From contig CALCST010000012.1 in assembly GCA_937894065.1 (NCBI GenBank), positions 12,508-36,507 on the forward strand: a stretch of DNA of 24,000 nt, in the 5' to 3' direction. The stretch's first letter is position 1; the number at the start of each line of letters is the position of its first letter. Shown here piece after piece: positions 53-16,882 of this stretch. The stretch comes from an uncultured Parabacteroides sp. (GTDB lineage Bacteria; Bacteroidota; Bacteroidia; Bacteroidales; Tannerellaceae). The position numbers and the translations under genes were made by a program. Below the pieces are notes generated by a model, which worked only from the letters and a program-made list of their open reading frames with translations, was not told the DNA's origin and made no database searches.

Positions 53-622
53 TTATAATTCTATATCATCACTTGATACAATCCCGTTTATTATAGAATA
101 GAATGTAAGTCCGGATACGGTTTTTATTCCTAATTTACTGGTTATGTTTTTTCGGTGAGAAAGAACCGTATTCAGACTTATATTTAAGTTATCTGCAATT
201 TCTTTATTTGTATATCCTTTTACTATTTGCTGTAAAACATCTGTTTCTCTATTTGATAGGAATTTACTATTTTCAGAATCTGAGTTATTATTAAAACTTG
301 ATGCTAATATTGGCTGTAAAATATCAATAATAGATTCTATATTGGAATTTGTAGGTATAATATTACAATTTGATGTATGTTCATTATTTGAACAGATAAC
401 AAATGTTTTATTCCTTTTCAACAAAAAATAGTCAATGTTTGATGAAAATATTTCGCTATTGGTGAAATAAAAATCAAAAGAGTCTGTGGTCTTGGAGAAT
501 TTATGAAAAGATTCGAATTGCTCAATAAAAAAGTGAGGGAAAAAATCGTTTAATATACTCTGTAGTCCTATTCTTTGGAAACAATCAGGTATGATTATTG
601 CTATTTGTTTGTTTTTAGTCAT
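53..622 (-). CDS. LuxR/GerE-family transcriptional regulator with a receiver-like (probably pseudo-receiver) N-terminal domain
   Basis: The C-terminus has a GerE-type HTH (ETDVLQQIVKGYTNKEIADNLNISLNTVLSHRKNITSKLGI). The N-terminus resembles the receiver beta1 strand (IAIIIPDCF). By eye alignment to NarL, the acidic pair reads PD and the phospho-acceptor position reads N/T (FDFYFTN). The gene starts 9 bp downstream of the preceding gene on the same strand. Confidence 0.8.
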   Translation of the reverse strand: MTKNKQIAIIIPDCFQRIGLQSILNDFFPHFFIEQFESFHKFSKTTDSFDFYFTNSEIFSSNIDYFLLKRNKTFVICSNNEHTSNCNIIPTNSNIESIIDILQPILASSFNNNSDSENSKFLSNRETDVLQQIVKGYTNKEIADNLNISLNTVLSHRKNITSKLGIKTVSGLTFYSIINGIVSSDDIEL

Positions 623-631
623 ATAAACAAA

Positions 632-1342
632 TTATTTACATAAATTCTCCATTGCAGATACAATTGGAGAAAGGATACGATATCTTATCCTGTTGTGCTG
701 TTTTACATCTTTTTCAAGACTGTTGATTGCAAATATTACAGCATAACATAAGTTCTCATCATAATCTCCAGATATATGCTTTATCATAATGCTTTTTAAA
801 TCGGCAAGCAAAGCTTCAATTGAATCGTCATTAGCTTCTTCAGACTGAAGATAAAATCCTTTTTCAGAATCAATATGTCCGCTTTGTCTGATTTTGCCTG
901 ATAATTCAATGCAATATGGAAACCATCTTTCTTCATCATCCTGTATTCTGGCAATAAGTTCTTCTTTGAATGAAGAAAAGAAACGTCCGATAATAGATAT
1001 TGTCGGATTATCAGGTTTACTCATATGGATAAAAGAATCCAAATGACGTTCAATATTTGGAATTTGGTATTTTATGTAATAATGATTTGTCTTGTTCAGA
1101 TAGTCAATAATCTGAGATGTATGAAAACTTCTGAGTTTGCTTTCTGGGAAATACTCTTCATTTAGGAAAGTGTTGATTACGGCAAGAAAGAAATCCGTAT
1201 CAATATTATAATCATTACAAATTTCATAGACTGATTTATCGCCTAATCCAAGACGAATTCCCAGTCTGTTTAATACTGGAATAAGTGAGGGGTGTTCTTC
1301 AACCACCTCACTCATTTGTATATTTGGGTATATTAGTGCCAT
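632..1342 (-). CDS. Hemerythrin/RIC(ScdA)-like domain protein (divergent)
   Basis: The N-terminus (EEHPSLIPVLNRLGIRLGLGDKSVYEICNDYNID) resembles the ScdA_N-type domain. IIDYLNKTNHYYIKYQIPNIERHL resembles the first hemerythrin/RIC helix motif, and the C-terminal HNRIRYRILSP is a degenerate HxxxE-type motif. The track ORF extends to 1438 but overlaps the upstream gene, so I place the start at ATG 1342 (alternative 1315). Confidence 0.5.
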   Translation of the reverse strand: MALIYPNIQMSEVVEEHPSLIPVLNRLGIRLGLGDKSVYEICNDYNIDTDFFLAVINTFLNEEYFPESKLRSFHTSQIIDYLNKTNHYYIKYQIPNIERHLDSFIHMSKPDNPTISIIGRFFSSFKEELIARIQDDEERWFPYCIELSGKIRQSGHIDSEKGFYLQSEEANDDSIEALLADLKSIMIKHISGDYDENLCYAVIFAINSLEKDVKQHNRIRYRILSPIVSAMENLCK

Positions 1343-1352
1343 ATATTGTATA

Positions 1353-2309
1353 TTATGCTTCTTCCCATTGTTTGCGTAACAAATCAACTGCAGTTGTAAT
1401 TGCTGCAGCACGATCTGAACCCTGACAGCCACATTCAAAGCTTACATATTTATTATATCCGATAGCTTTTAAACCTTTGAAACCGTCAATGTAGTTATCA
1501 GCGTCGCCATCTTCACCAGGCATACTTCTTCTCTTTCTGCTGGCAACATGCACATGCTGCAAATATTTACCTGCAGAGATGAATGCACCCATATCTGATG
1601 TTTCTTCCCAAGTCATGTGCCAGAAGTCACCCATACATCTAACACCAGGATTGTTGATATCTCTACACAATGAAGCTGCATCTGCTACTTGACGAAGATA
1701 GAAACATTCTTTTCTGTTAAGTGGTTCAAATATTACAGATGTACCATGTTCTGCTGCGTAATTACCCATTTCATTGAATTGTTCGCACAAGAAGTCTCGT
1801 GTAGCCTGATCGTGTGGCATTACAGGTTTCTGTCCATTGAATGCAGGAACGATAATTACTCCCACAGAACCCAGCTCACCAGCAGCAGCAATGATTTCTT
1901 TCATTGTATCCATGCACTGTTTTCTGATTTTTGGATCTGTTGAAATAATAAATCCTTTGAATCCAGCGCAGATAGCACTCAGTTTAATATTTCTTCCATT
2001 CAATGCTTTTTTGAATTCATCAACACGCTGAGCGAGATTTCCTCCACCAGGTTCTATACCTACAATTCCCAGCTTTTCCATGAAGTCAAGCTTTTCATTC
2101 AAGCTTTCACCCGGAGCAACACCTTCTTGCAATGATAGATTCAATGCAGCCGAAGAAGAATATGGTATTCCTTCAAATTTTGTTTGAGTATTATTATTTT
2201 GCGCTGCTTGTTCTTGTTTGTTATTGCATGATGCAAAAACAGAACCGCCAGTAGCTAGAGCAGCACCTGAAATAGCTGTTTTTAGGAAATTTCTTCTATT
2301 GAGTTCCAT
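1353..2309 (-). CDS. Tat-exported lipoprotein, sugar phosphate isomerase/epimerase (xylose isomerase-like TIM barrel) family
   Basis: A twin-arginine motif (NRRNFLK) is followed by the lipobox FASC. The body matches the AP_endonuc_2/xylose-isomerase-like fold by eye (GIVGIEPGG, IFEPLNRKE, HVHVASR). Confidence 0.8.
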   Translation of the reverse strand: MELNRRNFLKTAISGAALATGGSVFASCNNKQEQAAQNNNTQTKFEGIPYSSSAALNLSLQEGVAPGESLNEKLDFMEKLGIVGIEPGGGNLAQRVDEFKKALNGRNIKLSAICAGFKGFIISTDPKIRKQCMDTMKEIIAAAGELGSVGVIIVPAFNGQKPVMPHDQATRDFLCEQFNEMGNYAAEHGTSVIFEPLNRKECFYLRQVADAASLCRDINNPGVRCMGDFWHMTWEETSDMGAFISAGKYLQHVHVASRKRRSMPGEDGDADNYIDGFKGLKAIGYNKYVSFECGCQGSDRAAAITTAVDLLRKQWEEA

Positions 2310-2330
2310 AGTGATAGAGTTATTAAATTT

Positions 2331-2377
2331 AAAGAGTTTTTATCCTCAAAATATATGTATGGGGATAAAAACTCTTT
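2331..2377. other. Intra-operon hairpin with a 15-bp perfect stem
   Basis: AAAGAGTTTTTATCC (2331-2345) pairs with GGATAAAAACTCTTT (2363-2377) across a 17-nt loop. It lies in the 87-bp gap between the dehydrogenase and TIM-barrel genes. No U-run follows on the minus-strand transcript. Confidence 0.5.
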
Positions 2378-2396
2378 ATTATGTTATAAGATTTAC

Positions 2397-3782
2397 TTAT
2401 TTTTTATCGATAGGTTTACCTGGAACAGGAACAGTGAATGAGCTCATATCCATTTTACCCAAATTCAAATCTTTTGGAGTATAATCAAGTGGAGAAGCTG
2501 TCATTGCATCCCAAGTTGTTTCGCTACCAGTGTAAGCAGATTCACGTCCCATGATAGCAGCCATATTTGCTACAGCTGTTTCAGTTGCCTGCTGGATAGG
2601 TTTCTTGCTACGGATGCAGTTAATCCAGTTTACATGTTCCAATGTATATGGGTCAACTTGTTTGTATTTAGCTTTCTCAGCATCATGATCATATTTCCAA
2701 ACAACATTACCAGCCAAATCTTTGATTTCCATTGTAGCACTGTTCCATGAACCTTTAGTACCCTGGATAAATTCGCTTACGTTGTTTGCGCAACCATCAA
2801 TCTGACGGCACATACTATGCAAATGAATACCATTTTCCATAGTGAAGTCTACGCTGAAGTTATCATACTGGTCTCCAGTAAGACGACGCTGACGAGAACC
2901 GAAACCAACAGCTTTCACAGGTTTCAAACCACTGAACCATGTAAATACGTCGATATTGTGAACGTGCTGTTCTACGATATGGTCACCAGACAACCATTTC
3001 CAGTTAACCCAGTCTTTAATCATCCATTCGCAGTCGCTCCAGCCCTGCTGACGTTCGCGATACCACAACATACTCTGGTTCCAATAAACGATACCGCCAG
3101 TGATTTCACCGATCATACCTTCCATAATTTTCTTGTATGATTCGATGTAGCTACGCTGGTGGTGACGCTGAGTACCAGTAACAACAGACAAACCTTTAGC
3201 TTCTGCCTGTTTAGCTGTAGCCATGATTGTACGATAACCTGCTGGGTCTACACAGATAGGTTTTTCCAAGAATGAATGTTTACCTTTTTCAGTTGCATAC
3301 TGGAAATGTATAGGACGGAAAACAGGAGGAGTTGCAATGATAACAACATCAACACCACTGTCAATTAACTGTTTGTAAGCTTCCAAACCAACAAAACGTT
3401 TGTCAGCAGGAATATCTATATTTTTTTCTTTCTTCAATTTGTCAGCCAAAGCATCAACTCTTTCCTGGAATGTGTCAGCAAGCGCTGTAATTGTTACACC
3501 ATTTGCAGCATTAAGGAAGTTGAAAGCAGCACCTGAACCACGGCCACCACAACCGATTACACCAGCCTTAAGTTCCTGTCCGTCGCTTGCCAAATCAGGC
3601 AATTCTGGAGCATAATAACTACCTGGTTCTTTCAAAGGTTTGTTAGCACTACTACCTTCTGCAGATCCGCCACCGCAAGATGTTAATACACTTGCTGTAC
3701 CTGTACCCATAGCTCCAAGAGCTCCTGCCATTACTGAACTTTTCAGAAATGATCTTCTACTAATTCCGTTTTCTTTTTTCAT
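2397..3782 (-). CDS. Tat-exported Gfo/Idh/MocA-family NAD(P)-dependent oxidoreductase (periplasmic sugar/glycoside dehydrogenase-like)
   Basis: A twin-arginine signal (SRRSFLKSSVMAGALGAMG ... LTSC) precedes a Rossmann GxGxxG motif (GVIGCGGRGSGAA). The core EKP motif (FLEKPICVD) is typical of Gfo/Idh/MocA enzymes. Confidence 0.85.
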   Translation of the reverse strand: MKKENGISRRSFLKSSVMAGALGAMGTGTASVLTSCGGGSAEGSSANKPLKEPGSYYAPELPDLASDGQELKAGVIGCGGRGSGAAFNFLNAANGVTITALADTFQERVDALADKLKKEKNIDIPADKRFVGLEAYKQLIDSGVDVVIIATPPVFRPIHFQYATEKGKHSFLEKPICVDPAGYRTIMATAKQAEAKGLSVVTGTQRHHQRSYIESYKKIMEGMIGEITGGIVYWNQSMLWYRERQQGWSDCEWMIKDWVNWKWLSGDHIVEQHVHNIDVFTWFSGLKPVKAVGFGSRQRRLTGDQYDNFSVDFTMENGIHLHSMCRQIDGCANNVSEFIQGTKGSWNSATMEIKDLAGNVVWKYDHDAEKAKYKQVDPYTLEHVNWINCIRSKKPIQQATETAVANMAAIMGRESAYTGSETTWDAMTASPLDYTPKDLNLGKMDMSSFTVPVPGKPIDKK

Positions 3783-3811
3783 GATATAAATATTAAAGCT
3801 TTCTGTATTGT

Positions 3812-5380
3812 TTATTTGTTATTGTATTCACAAACTACTCGGAAGCCAATTCCTTTGATGTCTGAATACCACCAAATACTTTTTGGCTGCTGAGGATCTG
3901 TCTTAAGCCACAAATCATGCTGAGTACATCCTCGAGATGCACATCTTACATCTGCTGCATCAGATGTATAGTTACCTCCTCTGACTACCCATTCTGTACC
4001 TTCTGTTACCAATGGATTTGTCACATTGTCGCCACTCTTCTTATATGCTTCAGGGTCGTATTTATCAGCGCAATATTCCAATACGTTACCCAGCATATTT
4101 TTCAGACCGAATGGATTTGCTTTTACAGTTTCCGGATCCTGTGTCTTATTCTGGCTGTTTTTAGCATAAATTACATATGAACTTATGCTGTCAGTTTTAG
4201 CTGCAAAGAATTTTCTCCAGAAACCTTGGTCTGAGAAATCAGAAGGATCACCACTGAAGAAGTATGGAGTTTCGCTGCCGCCTCTGGCTGCATATTCCCA
4301 TTCAGCTTCTGTTGGGAGTCTATATTTCTTACCAGTCTTTTTAGACAACCATTGACAGAATGTTTCTGCAGCATAATGAGTCATAGTAATAGCTGGTCTG
4401 TTTCCGCCGCCCCAACCTTGATCCGGGAATCCGAATGGAGGAGTAGGTCCTGAAATAGCATCAACATTAGGATCACTGTTGTTTGCATAAACAGTTTCAG
4501 GCGGAGTTCTACCTTCACTCATTGTATTTCCATAGAATGCCCAATACTGATCCCAAGTAACTTCCAGCTCTGCCATGAAGAACTGGTCAACAGTAACTGT
4601 ACGAACAGGGCTTTCATCATCCTTATGGAAATCTTCACTTTCAGGGCTACCCATTTTAAATGTTCCGCCAGGAATAGCTTTCATATTGAAAGAAACCGCT
4701 GTTCCTGGAATTTGTTCTGTATAGTCTTCGAATGAAGTTACAGTTGTTGCTTCTTTGAAGAATTTACTTGTGTCAACTGCAGCAGCAGCTTCCAATCCCG
4801 GAATACCACTCATTTTTGAATGATTATAATTAGGATTGTAATGTCCGGCGTCAAGGTGACAGCTTATACATTGCAAATCTAATTTCTTTTCATTCTCATC
4901 ATAATATAGATGGGCTGTGATTCCATCATTTGTTATTCCTTCTGGGAACAGATTCTGATGACATTCTTTACAAGATTCGTTAGGAATATATTTTATGGCA
5001 TGTTCCAGCTCAGATTTTTGTTCCCAGTTAAAGTCTGCACTGTCCTTTGTCAGATAAGACCAAGCATCAGTAAGACCAAGTTTTAATTTCGCAGAATAAT
5101 GATCCCAAGTCTGGCTCTGAGGCGGAAGATGGCAGTCAACGCAATGCGTCAATACTCCACTACCATTATTGACATGCTTTGATAATTTCCAGCTGTCATA
5201 TACATGCGGGTGTACGTGGCACATCATACAAGATTCATCACTTGAGAAATATACAGATGTCTTATATGCTCCTATCATTACACCAGCACCAAGCACAATA
5301 CCTATGCCGAGTATGAATTTTTTAGAAGAAAAAAAGTTGTTTTTTTTCTTTATGTTTTCAAAGTTGTTATTTGTAGTCAT
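3812..5380 (-). CDS. Membrane-anchored NapC/NirT-like tetrahaem cytochrome c fused to an FGE-sulfatase (SUMF1/EgtB/PvdO-like) domain
   Basis: There is one N-terminal TM helix (FILGIGIVLGAGVMIGA) and four CxxCH haem motifs (CMMCH, CVDCH, CKECH, CISCH). The C-terminal half carries FGE-family motifs (RLPTEAEWEYAARGG, GLKNMLGNVLEYC, VVRGGNY, GFRVV). The track start at 5386 is TTG, so ATG 5380 is preferred. Confidence 0.8.
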   Translation of the reverse strand: MTTNNNFENIKKKNNFFSSKKFILGIGIVLGAGVMIGAYKTSVYFSSDESCMMCHVHPHVYDSWKLSKHVNNGSGVLTHCVDCHLPPQSQTWDHYSAKLKLGLTDAWSYLTKDSADFNWEQKSELEHAIKYIPNESCKECHQNLFPEGITNDGITAHLYYDENEKKLDLQCISCHLDAGHYNPNYNHSKMSGIPGLEAAAAVDTSKFFKEATTVTSFEDYTEQIPGTAVSFNMKAIPGGTFKMGSPESEDFHKDDESPVRTVTVDQFFMAELEVTWDQYWAFYGNTMSEGRTPPETVYANNSDPNVDAISGPTPPFGFPDQGWGGGNRPAITMTHYAAETFCQWLSKKTGKKYRLPTEAEWEYAARGGSETPYFFSGDPSDFSDQGFWRKFFAAKTDSISSYVIYAKNSQNKTQDPETVKANPFGLKNMLGNVLEYCADKYDPEAYKKSGDNVTNPLVTEGTEWVVRGGNYTSDAADVRCASRGCTQHDLWLKTDPQQPKSIWWYSDIKGIGFRVVCEYNNK

Positions 5381-5416
5381 GCACAAATGTAATTTTTATG
5401 GTATTTCATGTTAGCA

Positions 5417-5511: not shown

Positions 5512-8655
<3,144 letters not shown>

Positions 8656-8765: not shown

Positions 8766-9533
8766 TTAACATATTATACCAAGGTCTTTTGCAACTCTGC
8801 ACGCTTCAATAGAGTTTTTTACTTTTAGTTTGCCTAAGATTTCTTGTCGGTGTCTGCTCACGGTGTTTATGCTTATAGATAAATATTCAGCAATATTTTT
8901 GCTCATCAAACCTTTATCTATAAGTTTCAATATTTGTATTTCCCTTTCAGATAAAATTTTCGGGCATTTTCTTTTCCCCATTTCTGTTATATCTCCCGTT
9001 GCTGAATTAACCAAAATACTATTATATGGAATGTCTGATATTAGAGGGTAATATAAACACAGAGCTAGCCATAAACTGTTGTCAACCGGAGATGAAACAT
9101 AAAATATCCTATGTACAACAGGTATGAAATTCCCGTTTTTATCTCTCATCCTTAATTTATTTATAAGATAATAATCGGGACGCTTTCTTTTAGGAAGGTG
9201 TCTTATGAAATGGAAGAATCTTAACTCTTGCAGATATTTATTGTATAAATCTTCGGGGAAAATAAGATCTAGTATTTCTTTTTCCCAAATAGAATCGATT
9301 CTGTTTCCTTCACCGGGAATACTCTTTAATCCTAATGTGCTTGAAAAATTACCGTGATATATATAGCTTTTGTTTGATTGCATGTCGCTCAATACGGAAA
9401 TGGAATTTTCTATTTCCGAATAACCTTTTGCTATTGTTTTATATTTATCCAGTTCTTTGTTATATATAACTTTCTCAAAAGAAGAAAAACTTTGTTGAGA
9501 TAGCTCATCATTCAATTTGTCCGCTATATCCAT
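8766..9533 (-). CDS. LuxR/GerE-family regulator with a PAS-like N-terminal sensor domain
   Basis: The C-terminal HTH is SEREIQILKLIDKGLMSKNIAEYLSISINTVSRHRQEILGKLKV. The N-terminus has PAS-like signatures (IFPEDLYNKY, RMRDKNGNFIPVVHRIFYV). Confidence 0.75.
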   Translation of the reverse strand: MDIADKLNDELSQQSFSSFEKVIYNKELDKYKTIAKGYSEIENSISVLSDMQSNKSYIYHGNFSSTLGLKSIPGEGNRIDSIWEKEILDLIFPEDLYNKYLQELRFFHFIRHLPKRKRPDYYLINKLRMRDKNGNFIPVVHRIFYVSSPVDNSLWLALCLYYPLISDIPYNSILVNSATGDITEMGKRKCPKILSEREIQILKLIDKGLMSKNIAEYLSISINTVSRHRQEILGKLKVKNSIEACRVAKDLGIIC

Positions 9534-9578
9534 GCAAATTGGTTATTTATAATTATTGTGCTTATTGTTTTAACAATC

Positions 9579-9594
9579 TACATTTGCAAAAGTA
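9579..9594. promoter_or_regulatory. Two abutting -7 boxes forming a near-palindrome, TACATTTG|CAAAAGTA
   Basis: TACATTTG (9579-9586, plus) lies 28 bp upstream of the acetyltransferase ATG. CAAAAGTA (9587-9594), which is TACTTTTG on the minus strand, lies 54 bp upstream of the LuxR ATG at 9533. Both match TAnnTTTG. Confidence 0.4.
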
Positions 9595-9613
9595 ATGAAA
9601 AACGTAATCAAGA

Positions 9614-10171
9614 ATGGAAACTGAAAAAGAAAAGTGTCATAGAGGTTTACTTTATGATGCCAATAATGATAAAGAGCTATTGGCTGAACGACAAGTTTGT
9701 AAGGATATTTGTTATGAATATAATCAGCTCCATCCGTCAGAACTGGAAAAAAGAGAAGAAATAATAAAACATTTGTTTGGAAAAACAGGAGATAAGTTTT
9801 TGATTGAACAGCCTTTTTATTGTGATTATGGCTATAATATAGAAATTGGTGAAAATTTCTATGCCAATGTCAATTGTGTGATACTTGACGGTGCAAAAGT
9901 CCGTTTTGGTGATAATGTTTTTGTTGCGCCAAATTGTGGATTCTACACCGCAGGACATCCTTTTGATGTTAAGCAGAGAAATGACGGGTTGGAATATGCC
10001 TATCCGATTACTATAGGAAATAATGTATGGATTGGAGCTCAGGTGTGTGTATTGCCCGGAGTTACAATAGGCGATAATTGTGTTATTGGGGCCGGAAGTG
10101 TTGTTACTAAAGATATTCCAACAAATTCGCTGGCTGTTGGAAATCCTTGTAAGGTTATAAGGAAAATATAG
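9614..10171 (+). CDS. maa: Maltose/galactoside O-acetyltransferase (Maa/LacA family, hexapeptide repeat)
   Basis: By eye the protein is collinear along its whole length with E. coli Maa. Matching segments include the N-terminal GLLYDANNDKELLAERQ..YN, CDYGYNIEIGENFYANVNCVILD, and the C-terminal hexapeptide repeats IGNNVWIGAQVCVLPGVTIGDNCVIGAGSVV. Confidence 0.8.
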   Translation: METEKEKCHRGLLYDANNDKELLAERQVCKDICYEYNQLHPSELEKREEIIKHLFGKTGDKFLIEQPFYCDYGYNIEIGENFYANVNCVILDGAKVRFGDNVFVAPNCGFYTAGHPFDVKQRNDGLEYAYPITIGNNVWIGAQVCVLPGVTIGDNCVIGAGSVVTKDIPTNSLAVGNPCKVIRKI

Positions 10172-10194
10172 AAAAGATGTCAATCAAAATATCG

Positions 10195-10282
10195 GCTCAC
10201 CTAGGTGGTTCAATCAGCTCACCTAGGTGGATTGATTAACTCACCTAGGTGAATCAATTGGCTCACCTAGGTGAATCGGTTT
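10195..10282. repeat. Four tandem 22-bp units, each carrying the perfect 10-bp palindrome CACCTAGGTG
   Basis: CACCTAGGTG occurs at 10198, 10220, 10242 and 10264, an exact 22-bp phase. Each copy is preceded by (G/A)CT. The 12-bp spacers carry an AATCAAT/ATTGATT motif in alternating orientation. The array starts 24 bp after the maa stop codon. Confidence 0.9.
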
Positions 10283-10470
10283 TGAGATGCCTATCATGTG
10301 ATATTTTTAATAAGAAAAAGAGATATTTTTATAGTTATAATCTCAGGGTTTATTGGAATATATGATATTCTCGGGTTATAAACTTCCTGATGTTATATAT
10401 TATATAATGTAACTTCCGGTAATTTCGGTTTGAAAACTAAAATAATGTTTAATATAAAACTGTTGTGGAA

Positions 10471-11124
10471 ATGACAAAAAAATTATTTGTGGGCTTGATG
10501 CTCTTGTTTGTATCTCAGTTATCTTTTTCTCAAACATTAGAGAAAATGCAGTGGTTCAATGAACCTGAAAAATGGGAAATTAAAGATAAAACTCTGTCAA
10601 TGTTTGTAACTCCGCAAAGTGACTATTGGCGTATTTCTCATTATGGTTTCACTGTTGATGACGCACCTTTCTATTATGCAAATTATGGAGGAGAGTTTGA
10701 AGCTAAAGTGAAAATCACTGGAAAATACAAATCCCGTTTTGATCAGGCAGGACTGATGATTCGTATTGACCATGAGAATTATATCAAGGCAGGAATTGAA
10801 TTTGTTGATGGTAAATATAATTTGAGTACTGTTGTTACTCATAAAACATCTGATTGGAGCGTGATTACTCTCGACGAATCAATTCCTTATATATGGATAA
10901 AAGCAGTAAGACGTTTGGATGCAATCGAGATTTTCTATTCGTTTGATGATAAGGAATATGTTATGATGCGTAATGCCTGGATGAAAGATAATACTCCTGT
11001 TCAGATAGGTGTTATGGCTGCTTGTCCGGACGGCGACGGATTTGAGGTAACTTTCGAGCATTTTAAAGTTAAGCATCTTCCGGATATGAGGAGATTGGAA
11101 TGGCTTAAGAATAACGCAGAGTAA
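10471..11124 (+). CDS. Secreted DUF1349-family protein (concanavalin-like beta-sandwich)
   Basis: The signal peptide is MTKKLFVGLMLLFVSQLSFSQ. It is followed by WFNEPEKWEI...TPQSDYWR...FDQAGLMIRID, which I recognise as DUF1349-like. The track start at 10465 is GTG, so ATG 10471 is preferred. Confidence 0.6.
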   Translation: MTKKLFVGLMLLFVSQLSFSQTLEKMQWFNEPEKWEIKDKTLSMFVTPQSDYWRISHYGFTVDDAPFYYANYGGEFEAKVKITGKYKSRFDQAGLMIRIDHENYIKAGIEFVDGKYNLSTVVTHKTSDWSVITLDESIPYIWIKAVRRLDAIEIFYSFDDKEYVMMRNAWMKDNTPVQIGVMAACPDGDGFEVTFEHFKVKHLPDMRRLEWLKNNAE

Positions 11125-11686: not shown

Positions 11687-13183
11687 ATGTCAGACAGATT
11701 ATTTATTTTCGATACAACTCTTAGAGATGGTGAACAAGTTCCGGGTTGTCAGTTGAACACTGTTGAGAAAATACAGGTTGCGCGAGCATTGGAAGCTCTT
11801 GGTGTGGATGTTATTGAAGCTGGATTCCCGGTATCAAGTCCTGGAGACTTTAAAAGTGTGGTTGAGATTTCGAAGGCTGTAACTTGGCCTACGATTTGTG
11901 CTTTGACTCGTGCTGTTGAAAAAGATATCGATGCTGCTGCAGAGGCTTTGAAATATGCAAAGCGTGGCAGAATCCATACTGGAATAGGTACTTCTGATCC
12001 TCATATTCGTTATAAATTCAATTCTACACGCGAAGAAATTATCGAGCGTGCTGTTGCGGCTACAAAATATGCCAAGAAATATGTTGAGGATGTTGAATTC
12101 TACTGCGAGGATGCCGGACGAACTGAAAATGAATATTTGGCACGTGTGGTTGAGGCGGTAATCAAAGCCGGAGCAACAGTTGTGAACATCCCTGATACAA
12201 CAGGGTATTGTCTTCCTGATGAATATGGAGCAAAGATTAAGTATTTGATGGAACATGTTGACGGTATTCATAATGCAATCCTGTCAACTCATTGCCACAA
12301 CGACTTGGGTATGGCAACTGCCAACACAGTTCAGGGTGTTCTGAATGGTGCACGTCAGGTGGAAGTGACTATTAACGGTATAGGTGAACGTGCCGGAAAC
12401 ACTTCGCTTGAAGAGGTTGCCATGATTTTCAAGAGCCACAAGGAAAGAAATATCATTACGAATATAAATACTACTAAGATTTACAGCACAAGCCGGATGG
12501 TGTCAAGCCTGATGAATATGCCGGTGCAGCCTAACAAGGCTATTGTGGGACGTAATGCTTTTGCTCATTCTTCAGGAATTCATCAGGACGGTGTGCTGAA
12601 GAATGTTCAGACTTATGAGATTATCGACCCGAAAGAAGTTGGTATCGATGATAATGCAATTGTTCTTACAGCACGTAGCGGACGTGCGGCATTGAAACAT
12701 CGCATGCATGTTCTGGGATTGGAAGTTGACCAGGAACGTCTTGACAAGATTTATGAAGACTTCCTTAAACTTGCCGACAAGAAAAAGGAAATCAATGATG
12801 ATGATATCCTTGTTCTTGCAGGTGCTGACCGCTCACAGAATCATCATATCAAACTTGAATATTTGCAGGTTACAAGTGGTGTAGGTGTACGTTCTGTAGC
12901 AAGCGTAGGTTTGAATATTGCAGGTGAGAAGTTTGAAGCTGCTGCAACGGGTAATGGTCCGGTTGATGCTGCAATTAAGGCTCTTAAACAAATCATTCAC
13001 CGTCAGATGGTGCTTAAGGAATTCACAATCCAGGCAATCAGCAAAGGTAGCGATGATGTGGGCAAGGTTCATATGCAGGTTGAATATGACAATCATATTT
13101 ATTATGGTTTCGGTGCAAACACAGATATTATAGCTGCTTCTGTTGAGGCTTATATTGACGCAATCAATAAATTTGTGAAATAA
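11687..13183 (+). CDS. leuA: 2-isopropylmalate synthase
   Basis: The sequence has [20 protein letters not shown] and a C-terminal LeuA dimerisation/regulatory domain. It is 498 aa and is the first gene of the leu cluster. Confidence 0.95.
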
Positions 13184-15353: not shown

Positions 15354-15367
15354 AAAATATATTGCTT

Positions 15368-16882
15368 ATGATAGAGATAATGGATACGACACTTCGCGAT
15401 GGCGAGCAGACTTCGGGTGTATCATTTGCGGCACACGAAAAGCTTGGTATTGCCCAGGTGTTGTTGAGCGAGATGAATGTTGACAGGCTTGAGATAGCTT
15501 CGGCACGTGTTTCGGATGGTGAGTTTGAGGCTGTCCGGAAAATTGCTCATTGGGCAGAGCGTGCCGGTTTCCTGGACAGGCTTGAAGTGTTGGGTTTCGT
15601 TGATGGCGGTGTTTCCGTAGAATGGATTGAGTCTGCCGGTTGCAAGGTGATGAATCTTTTGTGTAAAGGTTCATATAAGCATGTGACTGAGCAGTTGCGT
15701 AAAACACCAGCTGAGCATATTGCCGACATTGAAAGAAACATTTCTGATGCCGTTTCACGCAATATGAAGGTGAATCTCTATCTCGAGGATTGGTCGAACG
15801 GAATTCAGGCATCACCTGAGTATGTATTTAACTTTATGGACTCACTCAAGGATATGCCCGTGGAGAGATTTATGCTTCCGGACACTTTGGGTATTCTGAA
15901 TCCTGAAGATACTTATAATTACTGTAAGATGATGGTTGATAAATATCCGGATATTCATTTCGATTTCCATGCACATAACGATTATGACCTTGCTGTGGCT
16001 AATGTCTATTCAGCTGTTAAGGCAGGAGTGAAAGGTATACATACAACCGTTAACGGATTGGGCGAAAGAGCAGGTAATGCTCCATTAGGAAGTGTTCTTG
16101 CAGTGATAAAGGATCAGCTCAAAGGAGAAACATCGTTGCGCGAAGAAAAAATAACACGTGTCAGTCATATCGTAGAAACATATTCAGGAATACATATTCC
16201 GGGAAACAAACCAATTGTTGGAGAATATGTTTTCACTCAATGTGCCGGAGTTCATGCTGATGGTGACAGCAAGAACAATCTTTATTGCAATGCCCTTTTG
16301 CCGGAACGCTTCGGCAGAGTGCGTGAGTATGCTTTGGGTAAGACTTCCGGTAAAGCTAATATACGTAAGAATCTCGAATCTCTTGGTATCGACCTCGACG
16401 AGGCTTCAATGCGTAAAGTGACAGAGCGTATCATTGAGTTGGGCGACAAGAAGGAAGTCGTTACTCAGGAGGATTTGCCATATATCATTGCCGATGTTCT
16501 GCATCACGACAATATGCAGGAATCTTCGAAAATAAAGATTCTGAATTATTCGCTTTCTCTTACTCAGGGATTAAAACCTGTTGCAACGGTGAAACTGGAG
16601 TTCTATGGTGAATCTTATCAGGAATCTGCAACCGGCGACGGACAGTATGATGCTTTCGTACGTGCATTGAGAAAAATATATTCTGACCTTGGTCGTCCGT
16701 TCCCAATGCTTACGAACTATTCTGTGTCAATTCCTCCCGGCGGACGTACAGATGCTTTCGTCCAGACAGTAATATCATGGAACTATGCCGGAGTTGACTT
16801 CAAGACCAGAGGTTTGGATGCCGACCAGACTGAAGCGGCAATTAAGGCAACGGTGAAGATGTTGAATAAGATTGAGCAGTGA
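15368..16882 (+). CDS. LeuA/CimA-family synthase paralog (citramalate synthase-like or second isopropylmalate synthase)
   Basis: The sequence has [21 protein letters not shown] and a C-terminal LeuA_dimer-like region (ATGDGQYDAFVRAL). The track start at 15362 is TTG; ATG 15368 or 15380 is preferred. Confidence 0.8.
   Translation: MIEIMDTTLRDGEQTSGVSFAAHEKLGIAQVLLSEMNVDRLEIASARVSDGEFEAVRKIAHWAERAGFLDRLEVLGFVDGGVSVEWIESAGCKVMNLLCKGSYKHVTEQLRKTPAEHIADIERNISDAVSRNMKVNLYLEDWSNGIQASPEYVFNFMDSLKDMPVERFMLPDTLGILNPEDTYNYCKMMVDKYPDIHFDFHAHNDYDLAVANVYSAVKAGVKGIHTTVNGLGERAGNAPLGSVLAVIKDQLKGETSLREEKITRVSHIVETYSGIHIPGNKPIVGEYVFTQCAGVHADGDSKNNLYCNALLPERFGRVREYALGKTSGKANIRKNLESLGIDLDEASMRKVTERIIELGDKKEVVTQEDLPYIIADVLHHDNMQESSKIKILNYSLSLTQGLKPVATVKLEFYGESYQESATGDGQYDAFVRALRKIYSDLGRPFPMLTNYSVSIPPGGRTDAFVQTVISWNYAGVDFKTRGLDADQTEAAIKATVKMLNKIEQ

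Follow-up and report, generated by a model that had tools for sequence, protein, structure and literature searches.

The window analysed here, a stretch of 24,000 nucleotides from an uncultured gut Parabacteroides, carries on its reverse strand a gene for a 522-residue protein in which a NapC/NirT-type tetrahaem cytochrome is fused to a domain of the formylglycine-generating enzyme (FGE) family. Our comparative sequence analysis suggests, with the balance of probability somewhat in its favour, that the fusion protein serves, as a membrane-bound electron-output subunit, a periplasmic dehydrogenase of sugars or glycosides that belongs to the Gfo/Idh/MocA family (Gfo hereafter), is exported by twin-arginine translocation (Tat) and is encoded by the neighbouring gene. 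The FGE-like domain, the Tat-exported Gfo, ApbE and a TIM-barrel protein constitute a module of three to four components that is real, widespread and, as far as we found, apparently uncharacterised. No description of the fusion, of the FGE-like/Gfo pair or of a link between FGE-like proteins and ApbE was found in open-access papers and bioRxiv, in agreement with the preliminary description of this DNA, which knew of no characterised function for the fusion architecture. The three core genes of the window are as follows.

3812..5380, reverse strand: NapC/NirT tetrahaem cytochrome-FGE-like fusion gene, 522 aa (open reading frame, ATG look-up and Pfam PF03264/PF03781)
2397..3782, reverse strand: Tat-exported Gfo/Idh/MocA oxidoreductase, 461 aa, beginning 29 bp downstream of the fusion gene (Pfam)
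1353..2309, reverse strand: xylose-isomerase-like TIM barrel with a Tat signal, 318 aa (Pfam AP_endonuc_2, E 3e-30)

The partnership between the FGE-like domain and the dehydrogenase is indicated by gene neighbourhoods. We compared 80 loci, one genome per species, in which open reading frames (ORFs) were called and matched against the proteins of the window; orthologues of more than 63% identity were left out of this set and covered through contig look-ups instead. Fifty-seven loci hold FGE-like genes with the subfamily signature described below, or truncated members of the subfamily, and 23 hold a generic FGE domain only. Neighbour counts are lower bounds, as many contigs end near the FGE-like gene, and antisense 'shadow' ORF families in high-GC loci (clusters 2, 3 and 7-11) were discarded. 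Six or more phyla are represented among the subfamily loci (Bacteroidota, Planctomycetota, Verrucomicrobiota, Acidobacteriota, Gemmatimonadota and KSB1), and the two sets of loci differ sharply in their neighbours.

Homologue of the window Gfo/Idh/MocA protein (2397-3782), adjacent: at least 40 of the 57 subfamily loci and none of the 23 generic ones
ApbE within 6 kb: at least 21 of the 57 subfamily loci and none of the 23 generic ones
Homologue of the window TIM barrel (1353-2309): at least 15 of the 57 subfamily loci and none of the 23 generic ones

Fisher's test gave p = 2.5e-11 for the Gfo linkage (on a first split of 53 versus 27 loci), and the Gfo homologue lies mostly 4-300 bp downstream of the FGE-like gene on the same strand. 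When 1322 ORFs within 6 kb were clustered, the only four real families present in eight or more loci were FGE-like, Gfo, ApbE and TIM. This linkage favours the suggestion, made when the gene was first described, that the domain docks with the neighbouring Tat dehydrogenase or accepts its electrons.

The module recurs in compact arrangements. Pontibacter sp. G13 (locus L092, CP134696.1, 5612-11331) has a tight operon of 3keto-disac_hyd (DUF1080), YceI, FGE-like (7001-7984), Gfo, ApbE (9325-10353) and TIM genes, while Prevotella sp. 10(H) (L086, JOMI01000001.1, 6808-14362) carries a divergent upstream ApbE gene followed by a NapC-FGE fusion, Gfo, TIM and CcsBA. Both presumed maturation enzymes flank the L086 cassette, ApbE on the upstream side and, on the downstream side, a fused ResB/CcsA cytochrome c synthase, and the position of the CcsBA haem lyase gene directly after the cassette gives a hint of covalent haem binding. 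In Echinicola pacifica the pair lies in a SusC/SusD polysaccharide utilisation locus (PUL) together with GH95, a second Gfo and DUF1080/3keto-disac_hyd, and SusC/SusD genes are present in L083 and L085. The repeated presence of DUF1080/3keto-disac_hyd genes and of PULs suggests that glycosides or 3-keto-glycoside chemistry are involved. ApbE was confirmed by Pfam in L028, L086 and L092, and it adjoins the FGE-like gene despite the lack of an adjacent Gfo in L017, L028, L039, L053 and L057. The cassette common to Parabacteroides and other Tannerellaceae, which occupies 53-5380 of the window, consists of the fusion, Gfo, TIM, a protein of about 230 aa without assigned function and a GerE regulator.

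Export of both enzymes to the periplasm is predicted from their N-termini. The window Gfo protein matches Pfam GFO_IDH_MocA and, above the cut-off, TAT_signal (23.3 bits), and a twin-arginine motif stands at the start of 36 of 41 Gfo homologues and 12 of 14 TIM homologues. Several public gene calls start the Gfo gene 17 codons late (444 versus 461 aa) and lose the SRRSFLK twin-arginine signal; such annotations would therefore wrongly predict a cytoplasmic enzyme. The solved relatives of the Gfo protein are remote, namely inositol dehydrogenases (E 6.5e-9), DgpA1 (3e-6) and the P2B11 glucuronide 3-dehydrogenase (3e-5). The TIM barrel is close to one solved structure, PDB 3kws (E 2.5e-156), deposited by structural genomics as a 'putative sugar isomerase' to which no function has been assigned, followed by the 3-keto-D-glucoside 4-epimerase YcjR (6wn6, E 1e-21) and then by ketose 3-epimerases; its NCBIfam match to the 5-keto-L-gluconate epimerase IolO was below the cut-off.

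The partners fused to the FGE-like subfamily domain provide a second line of evidence. NapC/NirT-fused domains occur in Bacteroidales, Prolixibacteraceae, Draconibacterium, Rikenella, KSB1 and Acidobacteriota, and in Verrucomicrobiota and Planctomycetota the subfamily domain is fused to one or two PSCyt1-type cytochrome c domains. As c-type cytochromes have been joined to the domain repeatedly and independently, it can be argued that the domain exchanges electrons with haem. In one protein, P0214, the domain is fused to ApbE itself (ApbE E 3.3e-68), another fusion partner is an uncharacterised FG-GAP-like region, and standalone subfamily proteins with a signal peptide are found in Flavobacteriia, Sphingobacteriia, Chitinophagia and Cytophagia. 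Judged from these architectures, the electron-output modules of the FGE-like/Gfo system appear interchangeable, with NapC/NirT, PSCyt1, ApbE or nothing at the N-terminus. A YceI-like gene stands beside a standalone FGE-like gene in three Bacteroidota loci (L092; L028, 10972-11514; L053, 10912-11454), in two of them between that gene and ApbE. YceI proteins are periplasmic and bind polyisoprenoids or quinones, and YceI might substitute for a cytochrome as the quinone link where no haem module is fused. Some Planctomycetota loci have two tandem FGE-like subfamily genes, and some generic FGE-domain loci have several paralogues with kinase-like or other large N-terminal regions; these features were noted in the set L036 (9065-11490), L041 (1394-3654), L079 and L062.

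The cytochrome module of the fusion protein has the layout of a NapC/NirT membrane-anchored electron-transfer protein. Residues are numbered on the product of the ATG at 5380; the ORF listing also allows a TTG start at 5386 (3812..5386), which was rejected as it gave no match in an exact-sequence look-up, whereas the ATG product of 522 aa is the recorded one and gene callers use the same start.

5264..5317, reverse strand: N-terminal membrane anchor helix, residues about 21-39, FILGIGIVLGAGVMIGAY, the strongest hydropathy segment, after a Lys-rich N-terminus
4856..5230, reverse strand: tetrahaem region with four CxxCH motifs, at 5216-5230, 5129-5143, 4958-4972 and 4856-4870

The single transmembrane (TM) helix followed by four haem-binding motifs, as had been read from the sequence beforehand, was borne out: the motifs CMMCH (51-55), CVDCH (80-84), CKECH (137-141) and CISCH (171-175) span 125 residues, and Pfam Cytochrom_NNT (PF03264) matched at E 1.5e-22 (80.6 bits, cut-off 24.1) over profile positions 10-173 of 174. 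The helix has a Kyte-Doolittle mean of 1.85, no second segment of like hydropathy was seen in the fusion protein, and a low-confidence full-length AlphaFold2 model (34 close orthologues; predicted local distance difference test, pLDDT, 44.6) places a helix at residues 22-46. With a positive-inside N-terminus and a single helix, the protein beyond the helix is predicted to be periplasmic. None of the four CxxCH motifs varies among 34 orthologues (71-88% identity) or in fusions with as little as 36% identity, and the same holds for His 57, 59, 69, 157, 180 and 187, which are candidates for the distal haem ligands. NCBIfam equivalog scores were all below their cut-offs (NrfH, 67.5 versus 134.2; TorC, 49.7 versus 478.2; napC_nirT, 35.8 versus 310.6; NapC PRK10617, 29.6 versus 349), and by these comparisons the module is a separate branch of the NapC/NirT family and is not NapC, NrfH, CymA or TorC. 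It resembles these quinol dehydrogenases (in TorC, the N-terminal domain) in the single N-terminal TM anchor and four periplasmic CxxCH motifs, and exchange with the menaquinone pool is presumed to be common to all of them. The fusion protein alone carries an FGE-fold domain, and its first haem motif reads CMMCHVH instead of the CxxCHxM of NrfH. Its proposed direction also differs, quinone reduction with an NAD(P)-type dehydrogenase as partner and not a terminal reductase (NAD(P), nicotinamide adenine dinucleotide or its phosphate).

The C-terminal part of the fusion protein is of the FGE fold but belongs to a distinct subfamily.

3821..4750, reverse strand: FGE-fold domain of the DPQxPKS subfamily, without the FGE catalytic residues, residues 211-520 (Pfam, E 3.9e-40)
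3932..3979, reverse strand: lost FGE catalytic Cys-pair site, GGNYTSDAADVRCASR, with Ser473 and a 3-residue deletion (HMMER against 6s07, 2q17 and 6muj)
3860..3910, reverse strand: subfamily-specific insertion and signature WLKTDPQQPKSIWWYSD, residues 491-507, W-x-x-x-DPQxPKSxWW-x-[ST]-[DE], before the final GFR strand (alignments)

The Pfam match and the presence of RLPTEAEWEYAARGG, GNVLEYC, VVRGGNY and GFRVV uphold the family assignment that had been made from these motifs. In HMMER alignments with solved FGEs the stretch 'GGSFLCHESYCNRYRVAAR' of T. curvata FGE is opposite 'GGNYTSD---AADVRCASR' of the fusion protein, so that 'GGSFLCHESYC' (6s07) aligns to 'GGNYTSD---A', and 'RGGSYLC' of the S. 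coelicolor FGE aligns to 'RGGNYTS'. The column of the first catalytic Cys (position 473) holds S or D in 130 of 142 family members; with this substitution and the deletion, the subfamily as a whole lacks the copper-binding catalytic Cys pair. The W..DPQxPKSxWW insertion marks the subfamily as distinct: it is invariant or nearly so in four wider subfamily alignments, further invariants are R479, R483, W491, D495, P496, P499 and W503/504, and neither the insertion nor the D..[ST].P[TS] loop discussed below was seen in the aligned canonical FGE, PvdO or generic FGE-domain proteins. The subfamily shares with FGE/SUMF1 (1y1e, 2q17, 6s07) the fold and the motifs RLPTEAEWE, GNVxE, RGG and GFR, but it lacks the catalytic Cys pair, carries the DPQxPKS insertion and the [ST]..P[TS] loop, and is linked to Gfo/Idh/MocA, ApbE and TIM-barrel genes instead of sulfatase genes.

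The preliminary description had been right that the catalytic Cys pair is missing; one detail is corrected here, as its quoted string was cut at CASR and the protein continues CASRGC. This pair, C480-x4-C485 (3926-3943, reverse strand), lies 7-12 residues downstream of the lost catalytic site and raises the question of an unusual but true sulfatase-maturating enzyme in which it forms a relocated active site and the haems serve as electron source or sink. Such a reading has the Pfam FGE-sulfatase match (E 3.9e-40), the existence of a C-x4-C pair and the database names of homologues behind it, and we regard it as effectively refuted. The homologous catalytic positions are a Ser and a deletion, and proteins with both C480 and C485 number no more than 3 among 34 close orthologues and 3 among 142 family members. 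C485 aligns to a Cys of T. curvata FGE outside the catalytic CHESYC stretch, and C480 presumably matches the structural Cys in 'RCAAR' of human FGE. The pair, being neither homologous nor conserved, was dropped as an active site; it appears to be an accident of this lineage or an additional disulfide. Cys342 and Cys517, which we take to match the structural disulfide of human FGE, are invariant in the 34 close orthologues, the wider family having mostly Arg at 517.

The genetic context of a maturase is missing as well. The earlier statement that the window holds no sulfatase gene was confirmed by Pfam and a further search of the window, and sulfatase adjacency in other genomes, named beforehand as the finding that would speak for such a role, did not appear: ORF clustering gave no recurrent sulfatase family among the neighbours of the 57 subfamily loci, and none was present in nine Pfam-annotated loci (within L083-L092). 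Since the Cys pair is lost and sulfatases are lacking from the window and related loci, the domain is unlikely to make formylglycine, as had been supposed, and on this reading the fusion protein is not an FGE. The database names are automatic labels at the domain level. The 90%-identity cluster of the fusion protein has 4390 members, including P. merdae WP_215667991.1, found on at least 1000 contigs, and P. massiliensis; its proteins are called 'SUMF1/EgtB/PvdO family nonheme iron enzyme' by NCBI and 'formylglycine-generating enzyme ... / nitrate/TMAO reductase-like tetrahaem cytochrome' by JGI, and 'formylglycine-generating enzyme required for sulfatase activity' is among the names of homologues.

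Structure comparison placed the domain among other members of the FGE fold. An AlphaFold2 model built with 142 diverse sequences had a mean pLDDT of 90.2, and its best Foldseek match was PvdO (5hha, E 9.8e-18), followed by a Treponema variable protein, the FGEs 2q17, 6s07 and 1y1e (E about 1e-16 to 1e-15), ToxD, CalU17, PorK and EgtB. In NCBIfam PorK/GldK scored highest (95.4 bits), PvdO was second (90.5, cut-off 500), and EgtB (50.7, cut-off 360) and OvoA (30.4, cut-off 400) were below their cut-offs. EgtB carries its iron-binding His triad in a DinB domain; no DinB-like domain of the EgtB/OvoA kind was detected by Pfam in the fusion protein, whose N-terminus is the cytochrome instead.

These resemblances allow the FGE-fold domain to be viewed, by analogy with PvdO, as a catalytic oxidoreductase acting on a small molecule, such as a keto-sugar or enediol produced by Gfo and TIM, with the haems taking or supplying electrons. 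We consider this quite unlikely. PvdO is indeed the top Foldseek and the second NCBIfam match, it too is without the FGE cysteines, it is likewise periplasmic and implicated in an oxidation, and the invariant R479, R483, W491, D495, P496, P499 and W503/504 could shape a new pocket. However, the PvdO model scored far below its cut-off, so that the match is one of structural resemblance and not of family membership; PvdO lacks the DPQxPKS insertion, the [ST]..P[TS] motif that is the candidate flavinylation site and the cytochrome fusion, and its gene stands in a pyoverdine context, where it is needed for dihydropyoverdine oxidation. There is no evident set of metal ligands in the domain, and the ApbE linkage would be left unexplained unless a flavin were the catalytic cofactor, in which case this alternative merges with the electron-output proposal.

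The linkage to ApbE has a possible counterpart in the domain itself. According to two accounts of flavinylation, ApbE places flavin mononucleotide (FMN) on the last Thr/Ser of the motif D-x-x-[S/T]-G-A-[S/T] in extracytosolic electron-transfer proteins (PMC12052999; PMC8238504). The fusion protein has a similar stretch.

4442..4462, reverse strand: DAISGPT, residues 307-313, candidate ApbE flavinylation site with Thr313 as acceptor, before the RLPTEAEWE helix (motif comparison)

It agrees with the canonical motif at six of seven positions, with Pro in place of Ala. Across 142 subfamily sequences the loop has the following composition.

Positions -6 to -3: D in 140, A/G in 139, V/I/L in 139 and T/S in 140 sequences
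Positions -2 to 0: R in 78 and G in 46, P in 139, and T/S in all 142 sequences, then x-P-[YF]

NapC-type fusions have G at -2 without exception. The exact canonical motif is found in L007 (DGISGAT), L010 (DGITGAT), L013 (DAVSGAT) and L014 (DVISGAT) and also in P0127 and P0128, and canonical variants among the fusions include DAISGAT and DAITGAT as well. No conserved [ST]GA[ST] or D..[ST].P[ST] motif was found in the Gfo, TIM or ApbE proteins, and the Gfo and TIM proteins were dropped as ApbE targets on this ground. The ApbE-FGE-like fusion P0214 is evidence of the same kind as that which, in the flavinylation survey, led to DUF2271 as an ApbE substrate (PMC8238504). Taken together, ApbE linkage and motif suggest that the FGE-like domain is a cofactor-bearing redox module and not a passive dock; covalent flavinylation of Thr313 is plausible, at slightly short of an even chance.

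The same partnership could operate without a flavin, the FGE-fold domain being a cofactor-less dock that holds Gfo to the haems, with ApbE serving elsewhere or with a non-covalent cofactor, and this we judge unlikely, though less so than the catalytic alternative above. In its favour, pairing with Gfo (40/57) is more frequent than pairing with ApbE (21/57), the motif departs from the canonical one at -1 and -2, and other FGE-fold proteins are purely structural, e.g., PorK/GldK, which gave the top NCBIfam score and whose solved PorK chains were matched. It would, however, require hydride from NAD(P)H to pass directly to haem with no mediator between two- and one-electron steps, which is chemically awkward; it leaves the contrast in ApbE linkage (21/57 versus 0/23) and the P0214 fusion without explanation; and no other conserved protein of the module has a flavinylation motif, while the hydroxyl residue of the loop is present in 142 of 142 sequences.

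With these pieces the electron-output proposal can be stated as a path. The Gfo/Idh/MocA enzyme, exported folded through Tat with tightly bound NAD(P), would turn a sugar into a keto-sugar in the periplasm by oxidising one of its hydroxyls, and the co-exported TIM barrel would epimerise, isomerise or eliminate the keto-sugar. The FGE-fold domain, which we infer to contact the dehydrogenase, would re-oxidise this NAD(P)H by means of an FMN that ApbE would have joined to Thr313 through a phosphoester bond, the flavin converting two-electron into one-electron transfer. Electrons would then pass through the four NapC/NirT c-type haems to menaquinone and, in this anaerobe, to fumarate reductase. 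In a wider form of the proposal, which we hold only tentatively, the FGE fold has been repurposed as a new ApbE-flavinylated redox class (variant motif D-A-[VI]-[ST]-[GR]-P-[TS]) that wires Tat-exported Gfo dehydrogenases to the respiratory chain. Its outlets would differ by group: gut Bacteroidales would use fused NapC/NirT to reach menaquinone, Planctomycetota and Verrucomicrobiota a fused cytochrome c, and aerobic Bacteroidota possibly YceI or another carrier.

The direction of flow was considered separately. At about -74 mV, menaquinol lacks the reducing power needed for NAD(P)+ (about -320 mV), and the module is also found fused to PSCyt1 cytochromes c, which are expected to be high-potential electron acceptors; for these reasons the oxidative direction is favoured. 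The earlier wording, an oxidase module fed by the haems, is kept as regards a redox role but is revised in direction, as electrons most likely run from the dehydrogenase to haems and quinone. In a reversed scheme the NapC/NirT module would oxidise menaquinol and feed the FGE-like domain, making Gfo a periplasmic keto-sugar reductase. NapC, NrfH, TorC and CymA are mostly quinol dehydrogenases, NrfH is the top cytochrome equivalog match (67.5 bits), and the characterised 3-keto pathway includes 3-keto-sugar reduction (bioRxiv 10.1101/2024.03.25.586180). Set against this scheme are both of the reasons just given, the PSCyt1-fused modules being those of Verrucomicrobiota and Planctomycetota, whose cytochromes would be expected only to accept electrons, and it seems improbable, more so than the catalytic alternative.

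Several observations speak against the electron-output proposal as a whole or against its flavin step. NapC/NirT proteins usually oxidise quinol, and quinone reduction is their less common direction. An adjacent Gfo is lacking from 17 of the 57 subfamily loci, several of which are cut by contig ends. The window contains no ApbE gene, and most NapC-type fusion loci have no adjacent ApbE; a housekeeping ApbE elsewhere must therefore be assumed. The candidate motif departs from the canonical one by Pro for Ala at -1 (139/142) and often by Arg at -2 (78/142; Gly in 46), and we know of no verified flavinylated site with Pro at -1. The Flavin-tag paper gives no data for Pro at -1, and in the ApbE review the only change described at this position is Ala to Val, with about 50% flavinylation (PMC12052999). 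D-A-V is found in true FGEs as well (T. curvata 'DAVVPEAPWW'), the motif being partly ancestral sequence of the fold, and the DAISGPT loop was modelled with low confidence (pLDDT about 56) and is probably flexible. Furthermore, the window Gfo scored 25.8 bits against a cut-off of 750 for the BT_2158 glycoside 3-dehydrogenase family (NF058561); it is not a member of that family, and the substrate class is therefore unproven, a sugar or glycoside being the candidate we infer from gene context.

If flavinylated, the domain would join the known ApbE-modified modules (NqrC/RnfG FMN_bind, NosR, PceC, DUF2271, DUF3570 and the FMN domains of urocanate and fumarate reductases), with which it has in common the periplasmic location, an adjacent or fused ApbE, a seven-residue loop running from Asp to an invariant Thr/Ser, and the proposed role between haems or membrane and a two-electron site (PMC8238504; PMC12052999). 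It differs in having the FGE/C-type-lectin-like fold instead of FMN_bind and Pro for Ala and often Arg for Gly in the motif, and its flavinylation is so far a candidate one. A search by term of the flavinylation surveys PMC8238504 and PMC11334425 gave no mention of FGE, sulfatase or Gfo, and one for 'sulfatase' gave no hit in the ApbE review PMC12052999.

The nearest described chemistry is the 3-keto-glycoside pathway of BT2156-BT2159/AL1-AL4 (PMC8121099; bioRxiv 10.1101/2024.03.25.586180). Both systems have a Tat-exported Gfo with bound NAD, presumed in the case of the window, and a TIM barrel, DUF1080/3keto-disac_hyd occurs in loci related to the window, and the glycan-utilisation setting is common to both. 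As described, the BT/AL cluster is made up of a TIM barrel, DUF1080, a regulator and two oxidoreductases; neither a cytochrome nor an FGE-like gene is mentioned. In the glycoside 3-dehydrogenase BT2158/AL3 the bound NAD is recycled by unknown means, which 'might also occur via ... cytochromes' (bioRxiv 10.1101/2024.03.25.586180; PMC8121099). Nasseri et al. found that NAD is not exchangeable (bioRxiv 10.1101/2024.03.25.586180), and Liu et al. stated that the short electron-transport chain of B. thetaiotaomicron 'probably precludes' cytochrome c-dependent 3-ketoglycoside dehydrogenases and proposed a sugar co-substrate for BT2158 (PMC8121099). By analogy with GFOR and BT2158, the window Gfo enzyme may likewise hold its NAD(P) in a non-exchangeable manner (PMC8121099). 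Whereas those authors propose recycling of NAD by 3-keto-sugar reduction, the module of the window would encode a dedicated respiratory outlet.

A like logic is seen in the membrane-bound LacABC/ThuAB glucoside/lactose 3-dehydrogenases (PMC9007349), which oxidise glycosides to 3-keto-glycosides in the periplasm, pass electrons via a cytochrome c subunit to the respiratory chain and are associated with DUF1080 hydrolases. The proteins are unrelated, however, with a GMC-type enzyme dependent on flavin adenine dinucleotide on the one side and an NAD(P)-bound Gfo with FGE-fold and NapC modules on the other, and LacABC has been deemed unlikely to operate in Bacteroides (PMC8121099).

The remaining genes of the cassette and of its upstream context are as follows.

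632..1315, reverse strand: conserved protein after the TIM barrel, 227 aa, no Pfam family; position kept in L001, L085, L088 and L089
53..622, reverse strand: GerE/LuxR-type regulator closing the cassette (Pfam GerE, E 1.7e-17); position kept in L085, L088 and L089
5512..8628, reverse strand: secreted beta-galactosidase of glycoside hydrolase family 2 (GH2), upstream context (NCBIfam Bga2A, 1030 bits)

A protein of 227-236 aa followed by a GerE/LuxR regulator also stands after the TIM gene in L085 (11916-13201) and L088 (11938-13229). Two orthologues of the 227-aa protein gave sub-threshold Hemerythrin matches (E 0.005-0.009), and one NCBI record names a member of its cluster an HTH (helix-turn-helix) regulator; the 227-aa protein may serve as the sensory partner of the LuxR-type protein. 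The GH2 beta-galactosidase (LacZ) was considered as a functional part of the operon and dropped, as the equivalent position in L085, L086, L087 and L088 is without it. Further along, a LuxR regulator (8766-9533) is separated from a leucine-biosynthesis cluster by a hexapeptide transferase resembling maltose O-acetyltransferase (9614-10171, forward strand) and a DUF1349 protein whose start resembles a signal peptide (10465-11124, forward strand). The leucine cluster comprises aconitase-type large and small subunits, Iso_dh and two HMGL-like/LeuA-type synthase genes (11687-13183 and 15362-16882, both forward strand), presumably isopropylmalate synthase and a paralogue of the citramalate or homocitrate type.

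A periplasmic dehydrogenase wired to the respiratory chain is known in kind; what may be new is the FGE fold as an ApbE-flavinylated domain, a proposal to be taken as tentative. If flavinylation is true, it would add a new fold and a variant motif to the substrate repertoire of ApbE. Many proteins that at present carry the wrong label 'formylglycine-generating enzyme' or 'nonheme iron enzyme' would in that case gain a function, and experiments would be eased by the 3KWS structure, in which a close homologue of the TIM component has already been crystallised. Periplasmic oxidation of glycosides at C3 by Gfo enzymes is a broad alternative route for the breakdown of glycans, glucosinolates and acarbose in gut Bacteroidales (PMC8121099; bioRxiv 10.1101/2024.03.25.586180). 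The module is an encoded candidate for the re-oxidation of NAD in a sister Gfo family, through a flavin/haem wire to the menaquinone pool, and, if this holds true, gut anaerobes such as Parabacteroides merdae would own a quinone-linked respiratory route for the oxidation of periplasmic sugars and glycosides.

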